64,000 bases of DNA from Candidatus Sericytochromatia bacterium (GCA_036676985.1 JAKFBU010000026.1:1-64000), one strand, 5' to 3'; shown: positions 3,045 through 49,927, counted from the first letter of the stretch. The notes: a model not told the origin generated them from the letters alone. Translations and numbers: made by a program.

Positions 3045-3242
3045 CGAAAACTCCTAAGAGCGGCCGATCACCTCGCACGCTGGGCATGGCCGGGTGCTCT
3101 GTGGGCCGTGTTGCCTCCATTCTAGCCGCTCGATCGCTCACATGTCGAGGAAAAGACCCCAAGCTTTTCGGCGGCCGTACCGATTGCCGCACGGGCGTTT
3201 CCTTGTAGGATGGCCTCGCCCGATTCGACGAAGGAGGCCTCC

Positions 3243-3755
3243 ATGCGTCCGGGATCCTCACCCTACGACAGCCTGACCGTCTACCTGCTCGCCCTGTGCA
3301 CGGTCCTCGCGGATCAGTTCGCCAAGGCCGGCGTGGTCGCGGCCCTTCCGCTCGGCCAGTCCCATCCCGTCGTCCCCGGCTGGTTGCACCTCACCTACGT
3401 CCAGAATTTCGGGGCCGCCTTCAGCCTGCTCTGGGGAAAGGGCATCCTCTTGAGCGGGGTGGCGGTGCTCGTGGTCCTCGGGGTGGTCGGCTACCAGTGG
3501 ATCGCGCGGCCTCGGGACCTCCGGGTGGTCCTGAGCCTCGGCCTGCTCTTGGGCGGGGCGGTCGGCAACCTCATCGACCGGGTCGCCCTCGGCTACGTCC
3601 GCGACATGGTCGACGTGCGCGTCGCCGGACAGAACGTCTGGCCCATCTTCAACCTCGCCGACATGGCGATCATGCTCAGCGCGGGCCTCATGATCCTGCA
3701 TGCCCTCACGGAGGGGCGGAGCCGCTCGGCCAGAGAAAATTTTCGGTCATTCTGA
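3243..3755 (+). CDS. lspA: Lipoprotein signal peptidase II (copy 1)
   Basis: QNFGAAFS, GGAVGNLIDR, VRDM and FNLAD motifs; AAGGAGG RBS before ATG 3243. Confidence 0.92.
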   Translation: MRPGSSPYDSLTVYLLALCTVLADQFAKAGVVAALPLGQSHPVVPGWLHLTYVQNFGAAFSLLWGKGILLSGVAVLVVLGVVGYQWIARPRDLRVVLSLGLLLGGAVGNLIDRVALGYVRDMVDVRVAGQNVWPIFNLADMAIMLSAGLMILHALTEGRSRSARENFRSF

Positions 3756-3833
3756 CCACCCGCCCCGCGCGCGCCGGGCCCTAGCATGGGGTCAGCCAAA
3801 GACGGCGCCGAGCATCAGGGATGGGAGGGTTCG

Positions 3834-5054
3834 ATGGGGAAGACAGCCCTGGTCCTGAGCGGGGGAGGCATCAAGGGGGCCTACGAGGCGGGCGTGATCC
3901 GCGCGCTGGCCGAGGCGGGGATCGTCCCGGACGTGATCGTGGGCATCTCCGCGGGGGCCCTCAACGGCGCCTACGTGACCAACCTCATCACCGAGGGGAA
4001 CTTCACGCCCGAAAAGCTCGACGACCTGCTCATCGACCTGTGGACCAACCGCGCGACCCTGGAGGACTTCTTCTACACGGCCGCGGGCGAGTTCGCCCCG
4101 GGGAGCCTCGGGGAGTCGTCGGTCCAGCGGATCTTCCACCGGATCGGGATCGATCCCTTCAAGAAGATCTCCTGGCTCAAGCTCGGCTTCGACTCCCTGC
4201 TGGCCTTCCGGGAGCTGGCGCTCGGTCGCTTCACGTCGATCTTCTCGCACGGCTTCCTGCGCGAGATGCTCACGACCTACCTGCGCCCGCCCGAGCGGGT
4301 GGTGCGGCCCGTGACCTTCTCCATCGCCGTCTCGGACCTCTTGGGCACCACCACCCTCGAGAACAACACCATCTCCGCCCGGCACTGCCACTACGAGACC
4401 TTCCACCTGCACGAGGGCATGTCGGCCGACGAGTGCAACACCCAGTACGACTGGATGCGCACCCTCATCACGGCGTCTTGCAGCGTGCCGATGGTCTTTC
4501 CGGCCACCAAGATGCACCTGCACGGCAAGGAGCGCCCGGGGCTCTACCTGGACGGGGGCATGGTCGAGAATTCGCCCATCACCCAGGCCTTCGAGCTCGA
4601 TCCCGAGGTGGACACGGTGATCGTCGTCATGGCGGCGACGGTGGTCGGCGAGCCCTCGCGCGAGCCCACCACGTACCTCCAGCTGATCGGGCGGGTGTTC
4701 TCCATCATCGCGGGCCGCTACTTGATCCAGAACTTCACGGACGTGAGCCGCGTCAACGAGCGCATCCTCGCCATGCGCGAGGTCCTGGACCGCGACCTGG
4801 ACGGCCAGATCATGCGCACGCCCCGCAACGAGCTCCTGTGCCGGGCGGCGGGGTTCCAGGACGTGGAGACCTTCCTCAAGCGCCGCTACATCCGCCTGGT
4901 GCCCATCGGGCCCACTGAGCCCCTGCCCGGCGGCATCTTCTCGGCCATGTTCTATCCGGAGCTCAAGCGGACCTACCTGGATCGCGGGATGGCCGACGGT
5001 CGCCAGGCGATCGCCGCCATGGTCGAGGACCGCCCCGCCGTTCCGCAGGTCTGA
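3834..5054 (+). CDS. Patatin-like phospholipase
   Basis: LSGGGIKG oxyanion loop, GISAG nucleophile elbow, LDGG catalytic Asp. Confidence 0.9.
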   Translation: MGKTALVLSGGGIKGAYEAGVIRALAEAGIVPDVIVGISAGALNGAYVTNLITEGNFTPEKLDDLLIDLWTNRATLEDFFYTAAGEFAPGSLGESSVQRIFHRIGIDPFKKISWLKLGFDSLLAFRELALGRFTSIFSHGFLREMLTTYLRPPERVVRPVTFSIAVSDLLGTTTLENNTISARHCHYETFHLHEGMSADECNTQYDWMRTLITASCSVPMVFPATKMHLHGKERPGLYLDGGMVENSPITQAFELDPEVDTVIVVMAATVVGEPSREPTTYLQLIGRVFSIIAGRYLIQNFTDVSRVNERILAMREVLDRDLDGQIMRTPRNELLCRAAGFQDVETFLKRRYIRLVPIGPTEPLPGGIFSAMFYPELKRTYLDRGMADGRQAIAAMVEDRPAVPQV

Positions 5055-5090
5055 AAGCGCGCGGGGAGGGGCCATGCCCTCCCCTTAGCG

Positions 5091-5630
5091 TTAGCCCGCG
5101 TAGTGGTAGCGGAAGACCACCGCGCCGGAGCCCGAGCCCGCCTCGGGCGTGAGCCGCATGGTGCCCGGATCGAGGCGCTCGATCCGGAGGGTGGCGAGGC
5201 CATCGGGCGTGCGCACGGTGTAGCGCGCGCCGGGCGTGAGGGGCAGCGGCCCCTGCTGGTAGGTGGTGGCCGCCTGGGGGGCGATGCCGCGATCGCTGCC
5301 GGCCTGGGTGTTGACCGTCACGTAGAACGTGTCGCCGTTGTAGAAGAAGGAGACGTCGCCGCGCGGGCCCATGCCGTCGTCGATGGGCCGGAAGCTGCCC
5401 GTCCGGAACTCGAAGCGGTCCGAGTGGAGCGGATAGCGCGGGTTGCGGTAGGTGATGGGGGCCGTTGCGAGCTGGGAGTCGGCCTCGGGCAGCTGGGCGG
5501 CCGCCGCGGGCGGGGCCTGCACCGTCCGGAGCGCGGCCGAGGGCGTGGTGGCGCCGGCAGGCGGCGTGCCGCAGCCTGCAAGACCCGCCACCAGAGCGGC
5601 CACACCCATCATCCCTATGACTCGACGCAT
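5091..5630 (-). CDS. Hypothetical lipoprotein
   Basis: Signal peptide with lipobox LAGC, Pro/Ala linker, beta-rich domain. Confidence 0.7.
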   Translation of the reverse strand: MRRVIGMMGVAALVAGLAGCGTPPAGATTPSAALRTVQAPPAAAAQLPEADSQLATAPITYRNPRYPLHSDRFEFRTGSFRPIDDGMGPRGDVSFFYNGDTFYVTVNTQAGSDRGIAPQAATTYQQGPLPLTPGARYTVRTPDGLATLRIERLDPGTMRLTPEAGSGSGAVVFRYHYAG

Positions 5631-5788
5631 CCTGGTACCATCCTTTACATGACGAGAGCCGGAGACCTTGGCTCGTTGCGACCGCTATTCGGCATTGCAT
5701 GCCGTTTTGAACCGGTCGGTGCTACTGAACGTAAACAAACGTAACAAGAGTGTTGCGAGATGTAAACAAAGGAGCGGCGGAAAAAACC

Positions 5789-9138: not shown

Positions 9139-10584
9139 ATGCTAGCGGTGGCCGCCATCAACTGGGTTCTCTCGGGCTTCGGCGCGGTCATCGGCGCGAT
9201 CTTCGTCCTGGGCGCCCTCCAGTTCATCTACTTCGTCGTCAGCGGGGGCATCCCGGGGACGGGCTTCTACTATGCGCGGCGCCTGCGCGACGGCAACGCC
9301 CAGGTCCGCCAGGACGCGGTGCGCGAGCTGGTCGAGCGCGGCGACATCTTCGCCTTCGGCCTCCTGGTCAAGGCCCTCGAGGATCGCGACGTGGCCATCC
9401 GGGTCACGGCCATCGAAGGGCTCGGCAACTTCCGCAGCACCCTCATCATCGAGCCCCTGCTCAAGTTCCTGCAGGATCGCAACCTGATCGTCCGCATCAA
9501 GGCGATCGAGGCCATCGGCAAGGTCCCCTCCGCCGAGATCGGCCCGGTGCTCCTCGAGGTCCTGCGGGACTCGGACCCGCGCGCCAAGCTCGTCGCCCTG
9601 CGCATCTTCAAGGATCTGCGGGATCCCCAGGCCCTGCCCGCGATCGCACGCCTCGTCCTCGATTCCGACGAGCAGGTCCACCATGCGGTCCAGGGCGTGC
9701 TGATGCACTACGGCTCCGAGTCCATCCAGCACCTGGCGCACCTGCTCCCTGACTCGTCCGATGGCGCCAAGCGCCTGGTCAAGTGCATGCTCGACATCGA
9801 CCGCGTGGCCTCGTACGAGCCCCTCAAGGAGGTCTTCGCCACCTCGAACGATCCGCATGTCCTCAAGGAAACGCTCGAGGCCCTGACCTCCAGCGGCCGC
9901 CCCGGAACCGCGGAGTTCCTGTTGCCCTTCCTGCAGGACCCGGCGTTCCCGGCCCGCGAGCACGTGGTGGAGGCCATCCCCTACCTGCGCGATCCGGTGT
10001 GCGTCTTCCCGCTCTGCCACCTCCTGGGCGAGCACGACGTGCGCATCCGGCGCAAGGCGGCCACGGCGCTCGACATGCTCGTGACGTTGTGCCGGGACGT
10101 GGAGGTGGTCGATCCGCTTTGCTCGGCCCTCTTGGACTCGGACTCCGAGATCCGGCGCTATGCCGCCCGGGCGCTCGGCCGCATCGGCGGGGTGCTCATC
10201 CAGCAGAAGGTCATCCAGGCCATGTGGGGCGAGCATGCGGGGCCGGTCACGACCTTCATCGAGAACATCGTGGGCTACCCCATGAACCGGATGGTGAGCT
10301 TCGACGAGCTTCTCCTGGCCCTCGATCGGGTGATGACCAACCAGCGCCTCACCGAGGAGTCCATGCGCTGCATCGACCTCCTCGAAAGCCTCATGATCGT
10401 CCTGCATGGCGGGAACGTCCGGGGGCAGCGGGTGGACGACCACACGCTCGACCTGCTCATCAAGGGCCGGCGGACCTACTACCCGCTGCGTCTCTACGAG
10501 CTGCACCCCCTGGCGGGCAGTCTGCTCGACTTCGTCACGAGCAAGGCCGAGGGCGATCGCTGGCGCGTCTCGAGCATGGTCTAG
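9139..10584 (+). CDS. Membrane-anchored HEAT-repeat protein
   Basis: N-terminal hydrophobic segment then repeated L.D....VR..A..ALG units. Confidence 0.85.
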   Translation: MLAVAAINWVLSGFGAVIGAIFVLGALQFIYFVVSGGIPGTGFYYARRLRDGNAQVRQDAVRELVERGDIFAFGLLVKALEDRDVAIRVTAIEGLGNFRSTLIIEPLLKFLQDRNLIVRIKAIEAIGKVPSAEIGPVLLEVLRDSDPRAKLVALRIFKDLRDPQALPAIARLVLDSDEQVHHAVQGVLMHYGSESIQHLAHLLPDSSDGAKRLVKCMLDIDRVASYEPLKEVFATSNDPHVLKETLEALTSSGRPGTAEFLLPFLQDPAFPAREHVVEAIPYLRDPVCVFPLCHLLGEHDVRIRRKAATALDMLVTLCRDVEVVDPLCSALLDSDSEIRRYAARALGRIGGVLIQQKVIQAMWGEHAGPVTTFIENIVGYPMNRMVSFDELLLALDRVMTNQRLTEESMRCIDLLESLMIVLHGGNVRGQRVDDHTLDLLIKGRRTYYPLRLYELHPLAGSLLDFVTSKAEGDRWRVSSMV

Positions 10585-20037: not shown

Positions 20038-20200
20038 GCCTTTCGAGTCGGGCGGACGGGTTTGTCTGCTCCGGCCATGACACAATCGCTTGGCCGTCAG
20101 GCTCGGTTGTGCTGGCGGGGCGCATCCGGTATACTGAGGGGGCTTTTTGGCCGTATCACGCCGTTTTGCGCCACCCGGCGCCCTCTGGAGGAGTCCCTTC

Positions 20201-20734
20201 TTGACCAAGAAGTCCTACGCCAGCCTCGCCTGCTATTTCCTGGCCCTGGCGGTCTATGCGATCGATCAGTGGGTGAAGCTCTGGGTCGTCGACCACATGG
20301 GCCTCTACCAGTCCATCCCCCTCATCAACGGCTTCTTCGCCCTGACCTACGTCCGCAACATCGGGGCCGCCTTCAGCGCCTTCTCGGGACAGGTCTGGGG
20401 GCTGGCCACGGTGGCCGCGGCGGTGTCGATCGCCATCATCGTCTACGAGCGCCGCCTCAAGGACTTCATGCTCGGCCACGTGCTCGCGCTCGGCCTCTTG
20501 CTGGGCGGCACGCTCGGCAACTTCAGCGATCGCATCCGCCTCCAGTACGTGGTCGACATGTTCGACCTGCAGTGGCAGGGCAAGAACATCTTCCCCATCT
20601 TCAACATCGCGGACATCGCCATCGACGTGGGCGTCGGCATCCTCCTGCTGGTCTTCTTCCTGGAGTCCCGCCAGGCCAAGCGCGAGGCCGCCGCCCCGGA
20701 CGCGGGCGCGACCATCGCGCAAGAGAGCCACTAG
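20201..20734 (+). CDS. lspA: Lipoprotein signal peptidase II (copy 2)
   Basis: DQWVK, RNIGAAFS, GGTLGNFSDR, VVDM, FNIAD; TTG start after GGAGG. Confidence 0.92.
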   Translation: MTKKSYASLACYFLALAVYAIDQWVKLWVVDHMGLYQSIPLINGFFALTYVRNIGAAFSAFSGQVWGLATVAAAVSIAIIVYERRLKDFMLGHVLALGLLLGGTLGNFSDRIRLQYVVDMFDLQWQGKNIFPIFNIADIAIDVGVGILLLVFFLESRQAKREAAAPDAGATIAQESH

Positions 20735-22956: not shown

Positions 22957-23018
22957 TGACGAGTCGTCATCGGCGATGCGATCTAGGCATTTGAGCGCCC
23001 GGCGGCCAAAGGTTCCGG

Positions 23019-23051
23019 TGCTATACTCGGAACGGTAACGAAACGTTACCG
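23019..23051 (+). promoter_or_regulatory. Extended -10 promoter plus palindromic operator of the peroxiredoxin gene
   Basis: TGCTATACT 23019-23027 then CGGTAACG-aaa-CGTTACCG 23033-23051. Confidence 0.65.
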
Positions 23052-23084
23052 AGTGTTGCACCCCTTTACCTTTGGAGGTCATCC

Positions 23085-23567
23085 ATGCTGAAGGTCGGAG
23101 ACAAGGTCTCGGGTTTTCGGCTTGAAGGCACCCTGAAGGGTGAGAAGAAGTCGTTCGGTCTCGAGGACTTCCAGGGCAAGAACACCGTTCTTGTCTTCTT
23201 CCCCTTTGCCTTCACGCCTGTCTGAACGCGCGAATTGCCGGACGTGAACTCCCTGCTCAAGGAGTTCGAGTCCCGCAACAGCCAGGTTCTGGCTGTTTCC
23301 GCCGATAGCGTTCACACCAACAAGCAGTACGCGGAGTCCATGGGCGGTCTCGACTATCCCATCCTCAGCGACTGGAACCCCCACGGCAAGTGGACCCGCG
23401 AGTTCGGGATCTTCCTGGAGGATTCCGGCTGCCCGTCGCGCTCGACGGTCATCATCGACCCCCAGGGCGTCGTCCGGGATATCCACACCAACCCGATCGG
23501 TGAGGATCGCGACTTCAAGTCGACGCTCACTCGCCTCGACGAGATCAACCAGGCGGTTCGCGCCTAG
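23085..23567 (+). CDS. Peroxiredoxin (AhpC/TSA, AhpE-like) with in-frame TGA at the peroxidatic Cys; probable selenoprotein
   Basis: GGAGG RBS; MLKVGDK...VLVFFPFAFTPV[TGA 23223-23225]TRELP...VLAVSADS..YPILSDW..RSTVIIDPQGVVR in one frame. Confidence 0.88.
23240..23273 (+). promoter_or_regulatory. Candidate bacterial SECIS hairpin
   Basis: GGAC-gt-GAACTCC-ctgctcaa-GGAGTTC-ga-GTCC beginning 15 nt after the TGA. Confidence 0.55.
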
Positions 23568-23580
23568 GCGTGACTCCAAA

Positions 23581-23612
23581 CCGAACGGCCCGGCGCAAGC
23601 CGGGCCGTTTGG
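23581..23612. terminator. Hairpin between convergent peroxiredoxin and encapsulin cargo genes
   Basis: CCGAACGGCCCGGC-gcaa-GCCGGGCCGTTTGG. Confidence 0.7.
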
Positions 23613-23634: not shown

Positions 23635-23988
23635 CTAGATCGGCTGGCCCATGAGGCTGCCGACCGTGAGGCCGCCCGTCCACGTGGGAGCATGCGCCGG
23701 AGTGGCCGCTGCGGCCGTGCCCGGCTTGTGCGCGAGGGCCGCGAGGTTGCCCTCGGCGATCGCCGCACTGTGCTCCTCGCGGAAGGTGCGATCCTGCACC
23801 GGATCGTGGGCGCGGAGCATGGCCGTGAGCTCAGCGACATGCTCTTTCTCCTCGTCCATCAGGTGCAGCATCAAGGCGCGCACGCCCGGCTCGCTGGCCA
23901 GGTCGTGCAGCTCCTGGTAGTGGTTGATGGTCTCCAGCTCGCGCACCAGGGCCTTGCGGATGACGGCGAGATCCACGGGGGTCGGCAT
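23635..23988 (-). CDS. Encapsulin cargo, ferritin-like protein (Myxococcus EncB-like) with targeting peptide
   Basis: RELETINHY...HLMDEEKEH iron-ligand helices, Ala/Pro linker, C-terminal GGLTVGSL cargo-loading motif. Confidence 0.88.
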   Translation of the reverse strand: MPTPVDLAVIRKALVRELETINHYQELHDLASEPGVRALMLHLMDEEKEHVAELTAMLRAHDPVQDRTFREEHSAAIAEGNLAALAHKPGTAAAATPAHAPTWTGGLTVGSLMGQPI

Positions 23989-23991
23989 CGC

Positions 23992-24849
23992 TTAGCGCGC
24001 CCCCGACTCGAAGGTGCAGATGGCGCCCGGACGCTTGATCCGGAGCACGAGGCTCTCGAAGACCCGGAACGGGTGGTTCATCTTCTCCACGCCGAGGTAG
24101 GCGGTGATGAGGTCCTGCCCGATGGCGAGGTCGAAGTTCTGGATGCCCACCGAGAGGATGAGCCCCTGACCCTCCTTGAGGGCCGGCGTCTGGAAGACGC
24201 CTGCGGTCGCCAGCTCGCGGATGTGGTTGATCTCGAGCACGCCCGAGCTGGCGTAGACCCGGTGCAGCTGCGAGTACCAGACCGGGTTGACGATGACGGC
24301 GTAGGGGCCCGCGAAGCCCGCCTCGAGCAGCTTGGCGCGGGCGTCGACCACGTCCTGGAAGCCGTTGCCGGCCTCGGCCCAGTTGCGGGCGACCACCGTG
24401 TTGCGGCCCTCGGCGTTGGCCAGGCCGTCGTAGCCGCACTCCTCGTCGCCGTTGAAGATGAGGTAGTCCTCCTTCTGGGCGACGATCGAGGCGGCCGCCG
24501 CCGCGGCGCTCACGTCGATGGGGTGGTTGATCTGGCGGGCCGTCTCCAGGTCGCGCCAGTAGAGCATGAAGTCCTTGTAGACGATGGGGATGTTCTCGTG
24601 GACGCGACGCTTGGCGCGCACCATGCTGGTCTCGGTCTCCCCGAAGACCGCGACCTGGGCCGAGCCGGTGCCCGTGAACAGGTCGTAGTCGACGTCCTGC
24701 ACCCCGGCGCCGAGCGGGCCGAACACGTGCAGGAACCGGCGACCCACCAGGCTGCGGCGGGCCACGTCGACGATCGTGTTGTCGATGAGCTCCCACTCTT
24801 GGGACGTCAGCGGCGATTCGGCCCGATTGAGGTAGGCGGCGTTGTCCAT
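23992..24849 (-). CDS. Family 1 encapsulin shell protein (Linocin M18 / HK97 fold)
   Basis: YL.R.ESPLT..EW..ID..., LVGRRFL.V.GPLGAG, KDF.L.WRDLE, EDYLIFNG, FDLAIGQDL..AYLG, FRVFESL. Confidence 0.95.
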   Translation of the reverse strand: MDNAAYLNRAESPLTSQEWELIDNTIVDVARRSLVGRRFLHVFGPLGAGVQDVDYDLFTGTGSAQVAVFGETETSMVRAKRRVHENIPIVYKDFMLYWRDLETARQINHPIDVSAAAAAASIVAQKEDYLIFNGDEECGYDGLANAEGRNTVVARNWAEAGNGFQDVVDARAKLLEAGFAGPYAVIVNPVWYSQLHRVYASSGVLEINHIRELATAGVFQTPALKEGQGLILSVGIQNFDLAIGQDLITAYLGVEKMNHPFRVFESLVLRIKRPGAICTFESGAR

Positions 24850-24926
24850 GGCGGTTGGTACTCCTTCCGGTGGCTGCGATGGGAGGGCGGTGGTCGGGGT
24901 GCCACGTCGTCGTTACGCTCCGACGC

Positions 24927-44490: not shown

Positions 44491-44958
44491 ATGCCTAAGG
44501 GCTTCAAGTTCCGCCTACAAACCGTCCTCGACCTGGCTGAGCGCGTGCAGGACCAGAAGGCCCAGCTCATGGGCGCCGCCGAGGCCCGCCGCCAGTCCGT
44601 CATCGACGTCCTCGAGAACCTGCTCCGGAACGAGGCCACCCTGCGCAGCGACCTGCTGAAGGCCCAACAGTCGGGCGTCCTCGATCTGCAGGCCATCCAG
44701 ATGAGCCTGCAGTTCCTCGACAACCTCGCCGAAAGGGTGGTCGGGCAGCGAGCCGCGCTGGCCAAGGTCGACGAGGAGGTGGAGGCGGCCCGGGCCGAGC
44801 TCATGGAGGCCGCCCAGAAGGTGCAGGTCCTTCAGAAACTCAAGGACAAGGCGCGGGCGGACTACAACCGCGAGGTCGACCGCCAGGAGGCCAAGTTCAT
44901 CGACGAGATCGCCACCGTGCGATTTGTTCGTCAGGGCTCCCTCAACTTTGGGGAATAG
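44491..44958 (+). CDS. fliJ: Flagellar export chaperone FliJ
   Basis: FKFRLQ.VL.L, coiled coil, E.K.IDE; follows fliI. Confidence 0.9.
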   Translation: MPKGFKFRLQTVLDLAERVQDQKAQLMGAAEARRQSVIDVLENLLRNEATLRSDLLKAQQSGVLDLQAIQMSLQFLDNLAERVVGQRAALAKVDEEVEAARAELMEAAQKVQVLQKLKDKARADYNREVDRQEAKFIDEIATVRFVRQGSLNFGE

Positions 44959-45019
44959 CCGCCGATGATGGGATCGGAAGGCCTGTAGAAGCGGGCCTTC
45001 GCCATCGAGGAGGTACCCC

Positions 45020-46417
45020 TTGAGCCTACCCATCCTGGTGACGCCGGCCGCCAAGCCGCTTCCGTCGAAGCCGACCACGTCTGCTACCCCCTCCGACAAG
45101 CCGTCCTTCTCGCAGGCCATCGGCAATGCCGAGCGCCGCACCGAGACGAAGCCTGTCGCGTCCGACAAGGACGTCGAGGTGAAGAGCACTCCGGACAAGG
45201 CGCTCGAAACGGCCCCCGAGGCCCCGGTCGCCGAGGAGCAGGCCCCGGTCGAGACACCCGTGGCGCAAGACCCCGTCGACCTCCAGATGATGGTCGCAGT
45301 CGCGAGCCAGGTCGCGCTGCCCGTGATCCAGGCGGTCGTCCAGCCGGTCCAGCAGGTCGTCGAGGTGAGCACCGCAGCGGCGCCCGTCGTCGAGACGGCC
45401 GCGCAGGCGCCCGTGCAGACGGCTCCCACCCATTCCAACACCCAGCAGGCCGTCGCCGAGCAGGTGAAGACCCCGGACGTCGCCGCCAAGGCCCCCGTGG
45501 CAATGCCGACCCAGGGCGATGCCCAGGCGAAGCCGGTCGACGCTCAGGTGGCGATCGCTCCCGCGGTCCAGCCCGAGACCGGCGACCAGCAAGGGGAGTC
45601 CCAGGATTCGCAGCCCCAGGCCGACAAGGGCCTCAAGGCTCCGGTGATGCCCGTGGCGACCCAGCAGGTGCCGCAGTCGATCGAGAGCCTGCGCGCCTCC
45701 GAGAAGGTCTCGACCCTCGTGAACGCGGCCCCCGAGGCCGCGATCGCCAAGGCACCGGTGGCGGATGCCGCCAAGCCCGCCCAGGACATCGCGACTGCGG
45801 CCCTCATGACCGAGGCGATGCAGGAAACCGAGACGGCTCAGCCGGCCGGCGAAACCGTCCGCCCCTGGCAGTTGCCGCACGCGGTGGGCAGCGCCGAGGT
45901 CCAGGCCCCGCAGGCCCAGGTCATCGAGGAGGGAGCGCCCACCGGCGAGCCCATGCCCATGCGCGAGGCCATGCGGACGACCTTCACGCAGGCCGCCAAG
46001 GAGCCAGGCAAGATGTCCGAGCTGCGCCTGCAGCTCACGCCCGAGCACCTCGGTCGCATGGAGATCCGCGTGATGTCCCACGAGGGCAACCTGAGCGCCC
46101 AGATCCGGGTGGACCACGCTCAGGCCCGCGACATGATGCAGGTCCAGATCGCCGAGCTGCGCCAGAGCCTCGCGGATCAGGGCATCAAGATCGATCGCCT
46201 GGAGGTCAGCGTCGGGCAGGACAAGCCGCGTGAGCAGTCCTTCGCCTTCGGCGGCAACCTCCAGCAGCAGACCGGACAGCAACAGCAGCAGGCCCACCAG
46301 CCCTCGACGGGCCGCGTGAGCTACTACGGCACCGAGACCTTCGACGAGGCGAGCGAGGAGGCCGAGGGCCTGCCGCTTGCGGGCGTCGGAGCGACGGCCG
46401 TCGATTACCAGGCCTAG
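45020..46417 (+). CDS. fliK: Hook-length control protein FliK
   Basis: P/A/Q-rich disordered region then LQLTPEHLGRMEI..LRQSL..QG T3S4 domain; precedes flgD. Confidence 0.9.
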   Translation: MSLPILVTPAAKPLPSKPTTSATPSDKPSFSQAIGNAERRTETKPVASDKDVEVKSTPDKALETAPEAPVAEEQAPVETPVAQDPVDLQMMVAVASQVALPVIQAVVQPVQQVVEVSTAAAPVVETAAQAPVQTAPTHSNTQQAVAEQVKTPDVAAKAPVAMPTQGDAQAKPVDAQVAIAPAVQPETGDQQGESQDSQPQADKGLKAPVMPVATQQVPQSIESLRASEKVSTLVNAAPEAAIAKAPVADAAKPAQDIATAALMTEAMQETETAQPAGETVRPWQLPHAVGSAEVQAPQAQVIEEGAPTGEPMPMREAMRTTFTQAAKEPGKMSELRLQLTPEHLGRMEIRVMSHEGNLSAQIRVDHAQARDMMQVQIAELRQSLADQGIKIDRLEVSVGQDKPREQSFAFGGNLQQQTGQQQQQAHQPSTGRVSYYGTETFDEASEEAEGLPLAGVGATAVDYQA

Positions 46418-48732: not shown

Positions 48733-48742
48733 GAGTTAGTCC

Positions 48743-49927
48743 TTGGATATCGGCGGCGTCGGGCTCGGCCCGACCGGATTCTCTGCGGTCCCGCCCGAAA
48801 CCGCCCTCGACCCGCAGCGGTCGGGCCTGGCGGGGGCGGTCCGCGAGAAGCTCGGTCAGGTGCGGCAGGCGCCGCTCGACCTTTTAAGCGACGAGCGATT
48901 GGGCCGGGAGCTGGAGTCTCTCGGCCTTCGCCCTGATGCGGGCAAGCTCCTGGCGGCGCGCGCCCTGATCAAGCTTCAGGGGCGCATCGACCCGACGTTG
49001 CTCGCCGACGTCGAGCGCAGCCTTCAGACGCTCGGCAATCCGGGACTGCCCGAGGCCGAGGCGGCGGCCTTCCTCGCCGCTCGACGCTTGCCTGCCACAC
49101 CGGACGCCATGTCGTGGGTGCTGGGTCGTCAGCACTCTCCCGAATCGGCCGGGGCCCGGATGATTGCCATCATCCAGCGGTTCGTGGCCGCCATGGCTGC
49201 CCGGACGGCGGGGCAAGGAACCCCAGCGGGGAGTGAATCCCCCCACCGGGGGGCGGGAGCCTCAAGCCAGGGGGCTACGACCGGGGCCAAGGCCAGTGAC
49301 CTGCTCAGCCAGCTCGAGAGCCTCACCTTGCCTGAAGGGGACGTCCAGAAGGTGACGGAGGGCCTCAGGCGTCTGGTGAACGCCATGCGGCCCCAGGAGG
49401 CCGACCTCGCGCGTGAGCAAGTGACCGTCGCCAAAGAGCGGCTGAGCGCCATGGCGGCCAAGGTCCTCGCCGAGTCGCCCCAGGAGGCCGGCGCGCGCGA
49501 GGTGCACGACGAGGCGCGCTTCCAGCAGGTCCGAAATGCTCGACAAGAGGGTCAGGAACCGCATGAATTCGTCATTCCCGTCTGGTGGAATGGTGGAAGC
49601 GGCGAGATCCGGGTACAAGAGCGTGCGAAGGGGGCGCCGCGACGCGCCGAGGAAGACTCGGCACCCGTACGGGTCGTGATGTCCCTGAATACACCTCACC
49701 TCGGGCCCTTGCGCGTCGATTTACTTTTGGCCCAGCGCCAGGTAAACTGTCTGGTCGCTGTGCAAGATCAAGGCGCTGCCGACTTTCTGACGCCGCGTCT
49801 GACGGAATTACGCTCAGCCATCGAGGAAACAGGTATCCACGTCCACGTGATGGGCATGAAGCCCTTCGCCCCGGACGACGGACACCCGGATCCGGGTGAC
49901 GCCAAGGGCGTGGATTACTACGGGTAG
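48743..49927 (+). CDS. Second FliK-like (T3S4 C-terminal domain) protein
   Basis: C-terminal L.TPHLGPLRV.L......V.C....L..L...I...G; precedes a stand-alone FlhB-C gene. Confidence 0.65.
   Translation: MDIGGVGLGPTGFSAVPPETALDPQRSGLAGAVREKLGQVRQAPLDLLSDERLGRELESLGLRPDAGKLLAARALIKLQGRIDPTLLADVERSLQTLGNPGLPEAEAAAFLAARRLPATPDAMSWVLGRQHSPESAGARMIAIIQRFVAAMAARTAGQGTPAGSESPHRGAGASSQGATTGAKASDLLSQLESLTLPEGDVQKVTEGLRRLVNAMRPQEADLAREQVTVAKERLSAMAAKVLAESPQEAGAREVHDEARFQQVRNARQEGQEPHEFVIPVWWNGGSGEIRVQERAKGAPRRAEEDSAPVRVVMSLNTPHLGPLRVDLLLAQRQVNCLVAVQDQGAADFLTPRLTELRSAIEETGIHVHVMGMKPFAPDDGHPDPGDAKGVDYYG

Follow-up and report, generated by a model that had tools for sequence, protein, structure and literature searches.

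A peroxiredoxin gene with a predicted selenocysteine codon in a Sericytochromatia-labelled genome

A peroxiredoxin frame interrupted by one TGA

A TGA codon that splits a peroxiredoxin (Prx) gene may mark a pseudogene, a sequencing error, or a codon that is translated, and the locus described here raises the question of which of these applies and, if the codon is translated, which residue it specifies. Within the window (the whole 64,000-nt stretch of Candidatus Sericytochromatia bacterium DNA that was analyzed), the full prx coding sequence occupies 23085..23567 on the plus strand, with 160 codons followed by a TAG stop at 23565-23567. A single in-frame TGA at codon 47 (23223..23225, plus strand), the predicted selenocysteine (Sec) codon, is the sole interruption of this frame, which contains neither another stop nor a frameshift. 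The first-pass annotation had proposed a hidden selenoprotein at this locus, pointing out that the ORF track gave only its 3′ part; in fact, the mechanical ORF list contains for prx only the frame from TTG 23235 to 23567, a C-terminal ORF of 110 amino acids. The proposed translation start, namely an ATG at 23085 preceded by a GGAGG ribosome-binding site, is also borne out: the Shine-Dalgarno box can be read directly at 23074..23078 (plus strand), 6 nt 5′ of the ATG at 23085-23087. An AGGAGG or GGAGG box is located 5′ of the upstream ATG in all four sequences compared, that is, the window and three orthologous loci (L001, L002, and L003).

When the TGA is read through, the product has 160 residues (...VLVFFPFAFTPV-U-TRELPD...; gene context ...FFPFAFTPV-TGA-TRELP...) and gives one Pfam AhpC-TSA match (PF00578) that continues unbroken over the TGA. 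This match covers residues 4-132 and profile positions 1-123 of 124 (E 4.6e-31; 107.8 bits vs a cutoff of 26) and, with no further stop in the frame, agrees with the earlier view that both halves of the gene are intact and in frame. A Redoxin match was also obtained (E 9e-23). The best solved relative by sequence is AhpE of Mycobacterium tuberculosis (Rv2238c; E 7.8e-23), residues 23-145 of the query being aligned to residues 20-142 of the chain. In this alignment, the TGA column coincides with the peroxidatic Cys of AhpE, in agreement with the earlier placement of the TGA at the C of a PxxxTxxC motif, and R119 corresponds to the active-site Arg. Thus, P40, T44, U47 (TGA), and R119 are all in place in the window Prx, with the TGA at the peroxidatic position of P40-x3-T44-x2-U47.

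The AF2 model of the read-through protein, computed from a 17-row alignment, has a pLDDT of 95.3 and a pTM of 0.91. Residue 47 is located in the first turn of a helix spanning residues 45-56, and R119 starts the strand 119-124. A Foldseek comparison of the model against PDB gave TMq values of 0.87-0.93, and the top matches listed are all peroxiredoxins of the Prx1/AhpC type. As modeled, the read-through protein is a complete Prx fold.

Conservation of the TGA codon and its cysteine counterparts

A scan of 185,579 species genomes yielded 14 pattern matches and, from these, three confirmed loci (L001-L003), whose Prx proteins are 59-64% identical to that of the window. All three carry TGA at the same codon, within FPFAFTPV*TRELPD, and have no other disruption. 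A protein search covering 5.8 billion clusters returned 15 matches at E ≤ 1e-10 among 35 candidates. All 12 close homologues (58-94% identity) proved to be C-terminal fragments of 88-108 amino acids that begin past the TGA, 11 of them at the residue aligned to query position 54 and one at position 73; the only full-length matches were three proteins that are 34-37% identical. A word search with residues 1-60 (three 5-residue words) retrieved no protein of 88-280 amino acids and no close Cys-type orthologue. The two parts of the gene were compared by pairwise Nei-Gojobori estimates among the four sequences, with dN/dS values of 0.16-0.46 for the 46 codons 5′ of the TGA and 0.30-0.48 for the codons 3′ of it, at dS values (0.7-2.2) that place synonymous sites near saturation. 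Purifying selection acts equally on the two halves.

More distant relatives were collected by an exhaustive phmmer search against 1.84 billion representatives, which gave 5,894 matches at E ≤ 0.001, only one of them below 1e-30, a 106-amino-acid post-TGA fragment. The only representatives more than 52% identical to the window Prx (P0017 and P0063) are both post-TGA fragments, and none of those covering the Sec column exceeds 52%, the nearest Cys forms being at most 52% identical. In the best 150 of the 5,894 representatives, the Sec column is occupied by Cys in 140, Trp in 3, and Asp, Ala, and Ser in 1 each, and is empty in 4 (fragments); the other active-site columns contain Pro in 135, Thr or Ser in 144, and Arg in 146. 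The first-pass annotation had proposed checking orthologues for TGA/TGC/TGT alternation at this codon: the close loci all have TGA (three of three), and it is among the distant representatives that Cys prevails. As a separate observation, the three representatives of 50% clusters with Trp at the peroxidatic column (P0088, P0162, and P0163) share the sequence FTGGWT and could be either a true Trp-type Prx-like group or the result of TGA being read as W by a gene caller that applied a different genetic code.

An unrooted FastTree phylogeny was computed from 141 of 154 rows after masking of the Sec/Cys column; the 13 rows left out had fewer than 125 of the 156 core columns filled. The four Sec forms make up one clade among Cys forms (support 100, stem length 0.54), whose weakly supported sister group (80) consists of 16 Prx1/AhpC-like rows; Cys occupies the masked column in 15 of these and Ser in 1. 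The topology fits a Cys-to-Sec conversion in this lineage, although the tree has no root and the sister grouping is weak.

The sole Cys 3′ of the TGA is Cys116 (TGC, 23430..23432, plus strand), located in GCPSR three residues before Arg119; no Cys occurs within three residues of Sec. Cys116 is invariant both in a 13-sequence alignment and in L001-L003, whereas none of the 16 rows of the sister group, and 26 of the 150 representatives overall, have an equivalent. The earlier suggestion that the only downstream Cys, in SGCPSR, could be the resolving one is thus upheld as to its uniqueness, and its invariance in the clade is consistent with the suggested role: Cys116 is probably the resolving residue, which would form a selenenylsulfide.

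The downstream hairpin and the decoding of TGA

The UGA is followed by a SECIS-like hairpin that lies inside the coding sequence (23235..23278, plus strand) and has three stems and an 8-nt loop. The upper stem of 8 bp (23245-23252 with 23261-23268; seven Watson-Crick pairs and one G-U) encloses the loop CUGCUCAA (23253-23260), the middle stem of 4 bp pairs 23240-23243 with 23270-23273, and the lowest stem, also of 4 bp, pairs 23235-23238 with 23275-23278. A hairpin with 7-bp and 4-bp stems had been proposed at 23240-23273; its existence is confirmed, but its size was understated, since the upper stem has 8 bp and an additional 4-bp stem is present. The 68 nt counted from the UGA fold with a minimum free energy (MFE) of -30.2 kcal/mol (z = -3.75), a value that none of 200 shuffled versions reached. 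The hairpin begins 12 nt past the UGA, and in all four sequences the loop begins 27 nt past it.

RNAalifold applied to the four sequences recovered a two-helix hairpin of 12 pairs; the hairpin is kept in all of them, with 95.8% of cells paired, compared with 21-50% in slid controls. Covariation across these four sequences amounts to 2 compensatory pairs, a level reached in 31 of 500 shuffles. Along the hairpin, the encoded peptide differs among the sequences (NSLLKEFE, SSRLDEFH, NSKLSEFS, and SSLTEQFA). Each orthologue hairpin taken alone is unexceptional (z = -0.44, -1.74, and -0.74). The upper stem alone, at -9.7 kcal/mol, is not rare in 67% GC DNA, ranking at about the 7th-12th percentile of a background of equally placed simple hairpins at 10,398 in-frame codon positions from 34 ORFs, where 6.5% of positions have a hairpin of -10 or better and 12.4% have one of -8 or better. 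With an unremarkable upper stem and unexceptional orthologue folds, the case for a SECIS element therefore rests on position and conservation rather than on strength; the conservation of TGA and hairpin among orthologues is what exceeds chance.

According to the Fig. 2 legend of a 2026 review, the bSECIS model allows 16-37 nt between UGA and apical loop, 3-9 nt in the loop itself, and 4-16 bp in the upper stem, with an MFE ≤ -7.5 (PMC13188914). The same source also includes in the model a G at loop position 1 or 2, and states that a subset of genuine bSECIS elements deviates from it (PMC13188914). The window hairpin lies within all four ranges, with a spacing of 27 nt, a loop of 8 nt, a stem of 8 bp, and an energy of -9.7 kcal/mol (-30.2 for the whole element). 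The G is the third base of the 8-nt loop in the window, L002, and L003, and the second in L001. A strict loop-G test fails the window and L002, and only L001 passes it in register (one of four); elsewhere, the rule is satisfied only if the outer loop bases are taken as a non-canonical closing pair. The SECIS-like hairpin that had been proposed past the TGA fits the published model only in part: spacing, loop size, stem length, and energy agree with it, but the loop G of the window hairpin is third instead of first or second. This atypical position could reflect a lineage-specific SelB/SECIS pairing. No SECIS or tRNA-Sec match was obtained from Rfam, either for the whole window at gathering thresholds or for 23180-23330 at E values up to 10; the sole match in the latter interval is a chance snoRNA (E 6.3).

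Sec machinery was sought in the 64-kb window and in related loci totaling 54 kb, which amount to a small part of each genome. ARAGORN found no tRNA-Sec in the window, where it reported only a tRNA-Leu, or in L001-L003, where it reported no tRNA, and no SelA, SelB, or SelD Pfam domain was found in 65 window ORFs or 36 locus ORFs. Given this coverage, the absence of the machinery says little. Regarding the genetic code, the stops of 64 high-GC3 ORFs are TAG in 31, TAA in 17, and TGA in 16, a TAG-rich, TGA-poor usage that is unusual for 67% G+C DNA; since TGA is an ordinary stop in 16 of these 64 ORFs, the code is not reassigned. In a scan for other recoded codons, 197 TGAs were flanked on both sides by 40 or more open codons; 22 of them passed a composition filter, and 19 of the 22 were sent to Pfam. 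The three left out were two neighboring-gene junctions (3126-5051 and 3756-5741) and a frame antisense to fliJ/fliK (44518-45837). An earlier, GC3-filtered scan had been too strict, missing the target Prx in both the window and L002. No second selenoprotein was found in the window: among the 19 TGA read-throughs, a domain spans the TGA in the Prx only.

In the reading that we favor, with a probability of about 0.85, the UGA at 23223-23225 of prx is decoded as Sec at the peroxidatic residue. By analogy with established bacterial Sec decoding, the hairpin 12 nt past the UGA would act as a bacterial SECIS: SelB carrying Sec-tRNA(Sec) would bind the apical hairpin while the ribosome is at the UGA, and Sec would be inserted without termination. 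In the enzyme, T44 and R119 of the PxxxTxxU pocket would activate the U47 selenolate, which would reduce peroxide and itself become a selenenic acid; Cys116 would then probably form a selenenylsulfide with U47, to be reduced by a thioredoxin-like reductant. The selenoprotein reading of the first-pass annotation is supported by the conserved TGA, the correspondence of TGA with Cys in homologues, and the conserved hairpin.

Four other explanations were weighed. A pseudogene created by nonsense mutation, or a sequencing or assembly error, would account for the finding that standard gene calling gives only the 110-amino-acid C-terminal ORF, and the lack of Sec machinery within the sequence examined (the 64-kb window and the loci) is compatible with it. 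However, the same TGA recurs in three independent assemblies at 59-64% identity, 12 of 12 close homologues are likewise truncated, the 46 upstream codons are constrained despite near-saturated synonymous sites, and no further stop or frameshift is present. Since all three loci share the TGA, all 12 fragments begin past it, and both sides are under purifying selection, the gene is neither a pseudogene nor an error, a very improbable reading that is effectively refuted. Recoding of the TGA rather than decay, as had been proposed from the sequence of the window, is strongly supported by its presence in three of three orthologues, by dN/dS values below 0.5 on each side, and by the conserved hairpin. 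With termination at the TGA, either only the downstream piece would be made, from TTG 23235 or GTG 23244, as a Cp-less thioredoxin-fold protein, or the two pieces would assemble into a split enzyme. Gene callers in many datasets predict exactly such a C-terminal ORF, yet both internal starts are without a Shine-Dalgarno box while the upstream ATG has one in all four sequences. Moreover, P40, T44, and the catalytic residue would be missing from the downstream piece, the upstream 46 codons are in frame and under purifying selection in every sequence, and the central sheet in the fold model needs both parts, so that this explanation is also highly unlikely.

A code in which every TGA is a sense codon, of the table 4 or table 25 type, might be suggested by TGA being the least used stop of the 64 high-GC3 ORFs. 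It is barely credible given that 16 of these ORFs end at TGA, some with Pfam matches lying wholly before that stop, that no domain continues past the TGA in the 18 other read-throughs, and that the homologue residue at the column is Cys, not Trp or Gly. The remaining explanation, recoding of the UGA to Cys or another standard residue, is unlikely, although better placed than the preceding three. It could proceed by near-cognate read-through, or through a Sec-like tRNA charged with Cys together with a SelB-like factor. A Sec-like tRNA charged with Cys is reportedly a natural variant described by Mukai and colleagues. Such recoding would agree equally well with the conservation of TGA and hairpin and with the purifying selection of both halves; in addition, the loop G is not at its canonical bSECIS position, and no Sec machinery is seen in the window and the three loci. 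On the other hand, a TGA at the Prx catalytic Cys is the classic signature of the Sec-Prx TxxU family, as described in PMC13188914 and PMC1794560. In addition, TGC would serve to encode Cys but is used by none of the three DNA orthologues, and the word search with residues 1-60 retrieved no full-length close homologue; that TGA has been kept for so long implies a benefit not provided by Cys. We therefore infer that Sec, rather than Cys, is inserted at the UGA.

Genomic setting and known relatives

In the window, prx stands alone, with an NfeD/SPFH pair upstream on the same strand, separated from it by a 128-nt spacer. Between the SPFH gene and the prx ribosome-binding site, nested inverted repeats (23017..23062) comprise 14-nt arms, 86% complementary, around perfect 8-nt arms (CGGTAACG/CGTTACCG) with a 3-nt spacer. 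These repeats may serve as an operator for a repressor or form a hairpin in the 5′ leader, and whether they belong to the feature is uncertain; the 40 nt 5′ of the L001-L003 start codons look different. A G+C-rich hairpin (23586..23602) between prx and a convergent EncFtn-like gene is terminator-like on the minus strand and has a T-containing tail on the plus strand. It is likely a terminator, on the weak support of a scan that found 1 site against 0.7 expected. The convergent neighbors (23635-24912, minus strand) are a family-1 encapsulin shell gene (Linocin_M18, E 2.7e-70) and, downstream of it on the same strand, the cargo-like gene, which is EncFtn-like (E 5.2e-10). A functional link between prx and this pair was considered and is unsupported, the pair not being beside prx in L001-L003.

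In all three of these loci, prx lies between fliK and a convergent nrdD, with no encapsulin/EncFtn pair adjoining; since fliK and nrdD flank it there instead, no neighbor is conserved with prx. Only FliJ and Prx are common to the window and the related loci, the FliJ protein being 29% identical to that of L003. The contig of L001 (DATNPP010000240.1) is labelled as an Oscillatoriaceae cyanobacterium, a family-level label that looks doubtful for DNA of 67% G+C with a fliK-like gene; its gene order (fliK, prx, nrdD, a ferredoxin-domain gene, a subtilase gene, and GH35) is that of L002 and of the Sericytochromatia-labelled L003. Elsewhere in the window, 38187-64000 is occupied by a long same-strand cluster of flagellar and chemotaxis genes (flgB/C, fliE-K, flgD, flgE, motAB, fliL-R, flhB, cheR, cheW, cheY, and cheA) that includes a second FliK-like ORF (48740-49924). 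Two LspA (signal peptidase II) paralogues are encoded on the plus strand at 3126-3752 and 20138-20731 (E 5.5e-35 and 4.6e-35).

For annotation, the consequence is that prx, now shown as a 110-residue 'AhpC' fragment, should be represented as one predicted 160-residue selenoprotein, and all 12 close database relatives are stored in the same fragment form. A conserved Sec codon would imply a full Sec-decoding machinery and a selenium need in the host and in the three related MAGs. For enzymology, the predicted Sec/Cys116 pair in a minimal Prx scaffold offers a natural system for comparing selenol with thiol peroxidatic chemistry. That Sec-peroxiredoxins exist, that they have a TxxU motif, and that they get mis-annotated as truncated genes is textbook knowledge in the selenoprotein field; Sec-Prx is already well known in bacteria, and the gene opens no new question in this respect. 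Genome-resolved members of the clade lie in flagellated, high-GC MAGs labelled Sericytochromatia or Cyanobacteriota. We suggest only tentatively, as a possibility less probable than its opposite, that they harbor a distinct, undescribed Sec-Prx lineage with a U47 + Cys116 selenenylsulfide pair and a Cys-to-Sec conversion of its own. If true, this would place Sec decoding in a non-photosynthetic cyanobacterial lineage, where it is barely reported. Sec decoding was given as undetected in Cyanobacteria in a 2006 paper (PMC1794560), and one annotated Sec protein is recorded for a Melainabacteria record in a 2022 survey (PMC9529120). A literature search found no paper joining 'Sericytochromatia' with 'selenocysteine', and no Sec-containing AhpE was evident from the titles and abstracts that it returned.

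Among characterized proteins, the obvious point of comparison is PrxU of Eubacterium acidaminophilum, reportedly characterized by Sohling et al. in 2001. This enzyme is cited as an experimentally characterized Sec-Prx in the review mentioned above (PMC13188914). The window Prx resembles PrxU (NF040737, thioredoxin-dependent selenoperoxiredoxin) in its predicted Sec at the peroxidatic position, but its score of 73.1 bits falls far below the curated cutoff of 270, and the match covers profile positions 35-188 of 233. The window Prx is shorter and is not an equivalog. Nor is it an equivalog of AhpC (TIGR03137): the score is 79.7 bits against a cutoff of 272, over profile positions 4-152 of 187, and the C-terminal extension that carries the resolving Cys of AhpC is missing from the window Prx, which ends at residue 160. 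AhpE (Rv2238c), a 1-Cys Prx of 153 amino acids, is similar in length and has the same PxxxTxxC and Arg positions; in contrast, it has Cys at Cp and Ile where the window Prx has Cys116. Sequence scores against PDB place AhpE first (84 bits vs 74 for Prx4), whereas in the tree the Sec clade is located away from the AhpE-like FTGVCTGEL representatives and weakly beside the Prx1/AhpC-like rows, and the top structural matches are likewise of the Prx1/AhpC type. A further likeness, namely PF00578 with Sec (predicted in the window Prx) in a redox site, is to the Prx-like thiol:disulfide oxidoreductase selenoproteins listed in Table 1 of PMC13188914. These proteins have their Sec in UxxC or UxxU, like the CxxC of thioredoxin, while the window Prx has TxxU.

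The Sec-Prx TxxU family itself was represented by 43 Sargasso Sea genes in one survey (PMC1088965), by 12 members, with five events of Cys-to-Sec conversion, in a 2006 paper (PMC1794560, Table 1), and by 91 proteins from 78 organisms in a 2016 one (PMC5029168, Table 3), and it is included (PF00578, TxxU) in Table 1 of the 2026 review, which also states that automated annotation often truncates selenoprotein genes (PMC13188914). The window Prx is like this family in its AhpC/TSA fold, a predicted Sec in PxxxTxxU, an in-frame stem-loop past the UGA, and Cys homologues that are widespread. Its clade occupies a branch of its own, separate from all representatives retrieved here, and the invariant Cys116 that accompanies the predicted U47 may set it apart from the Sec-Prx family in general.
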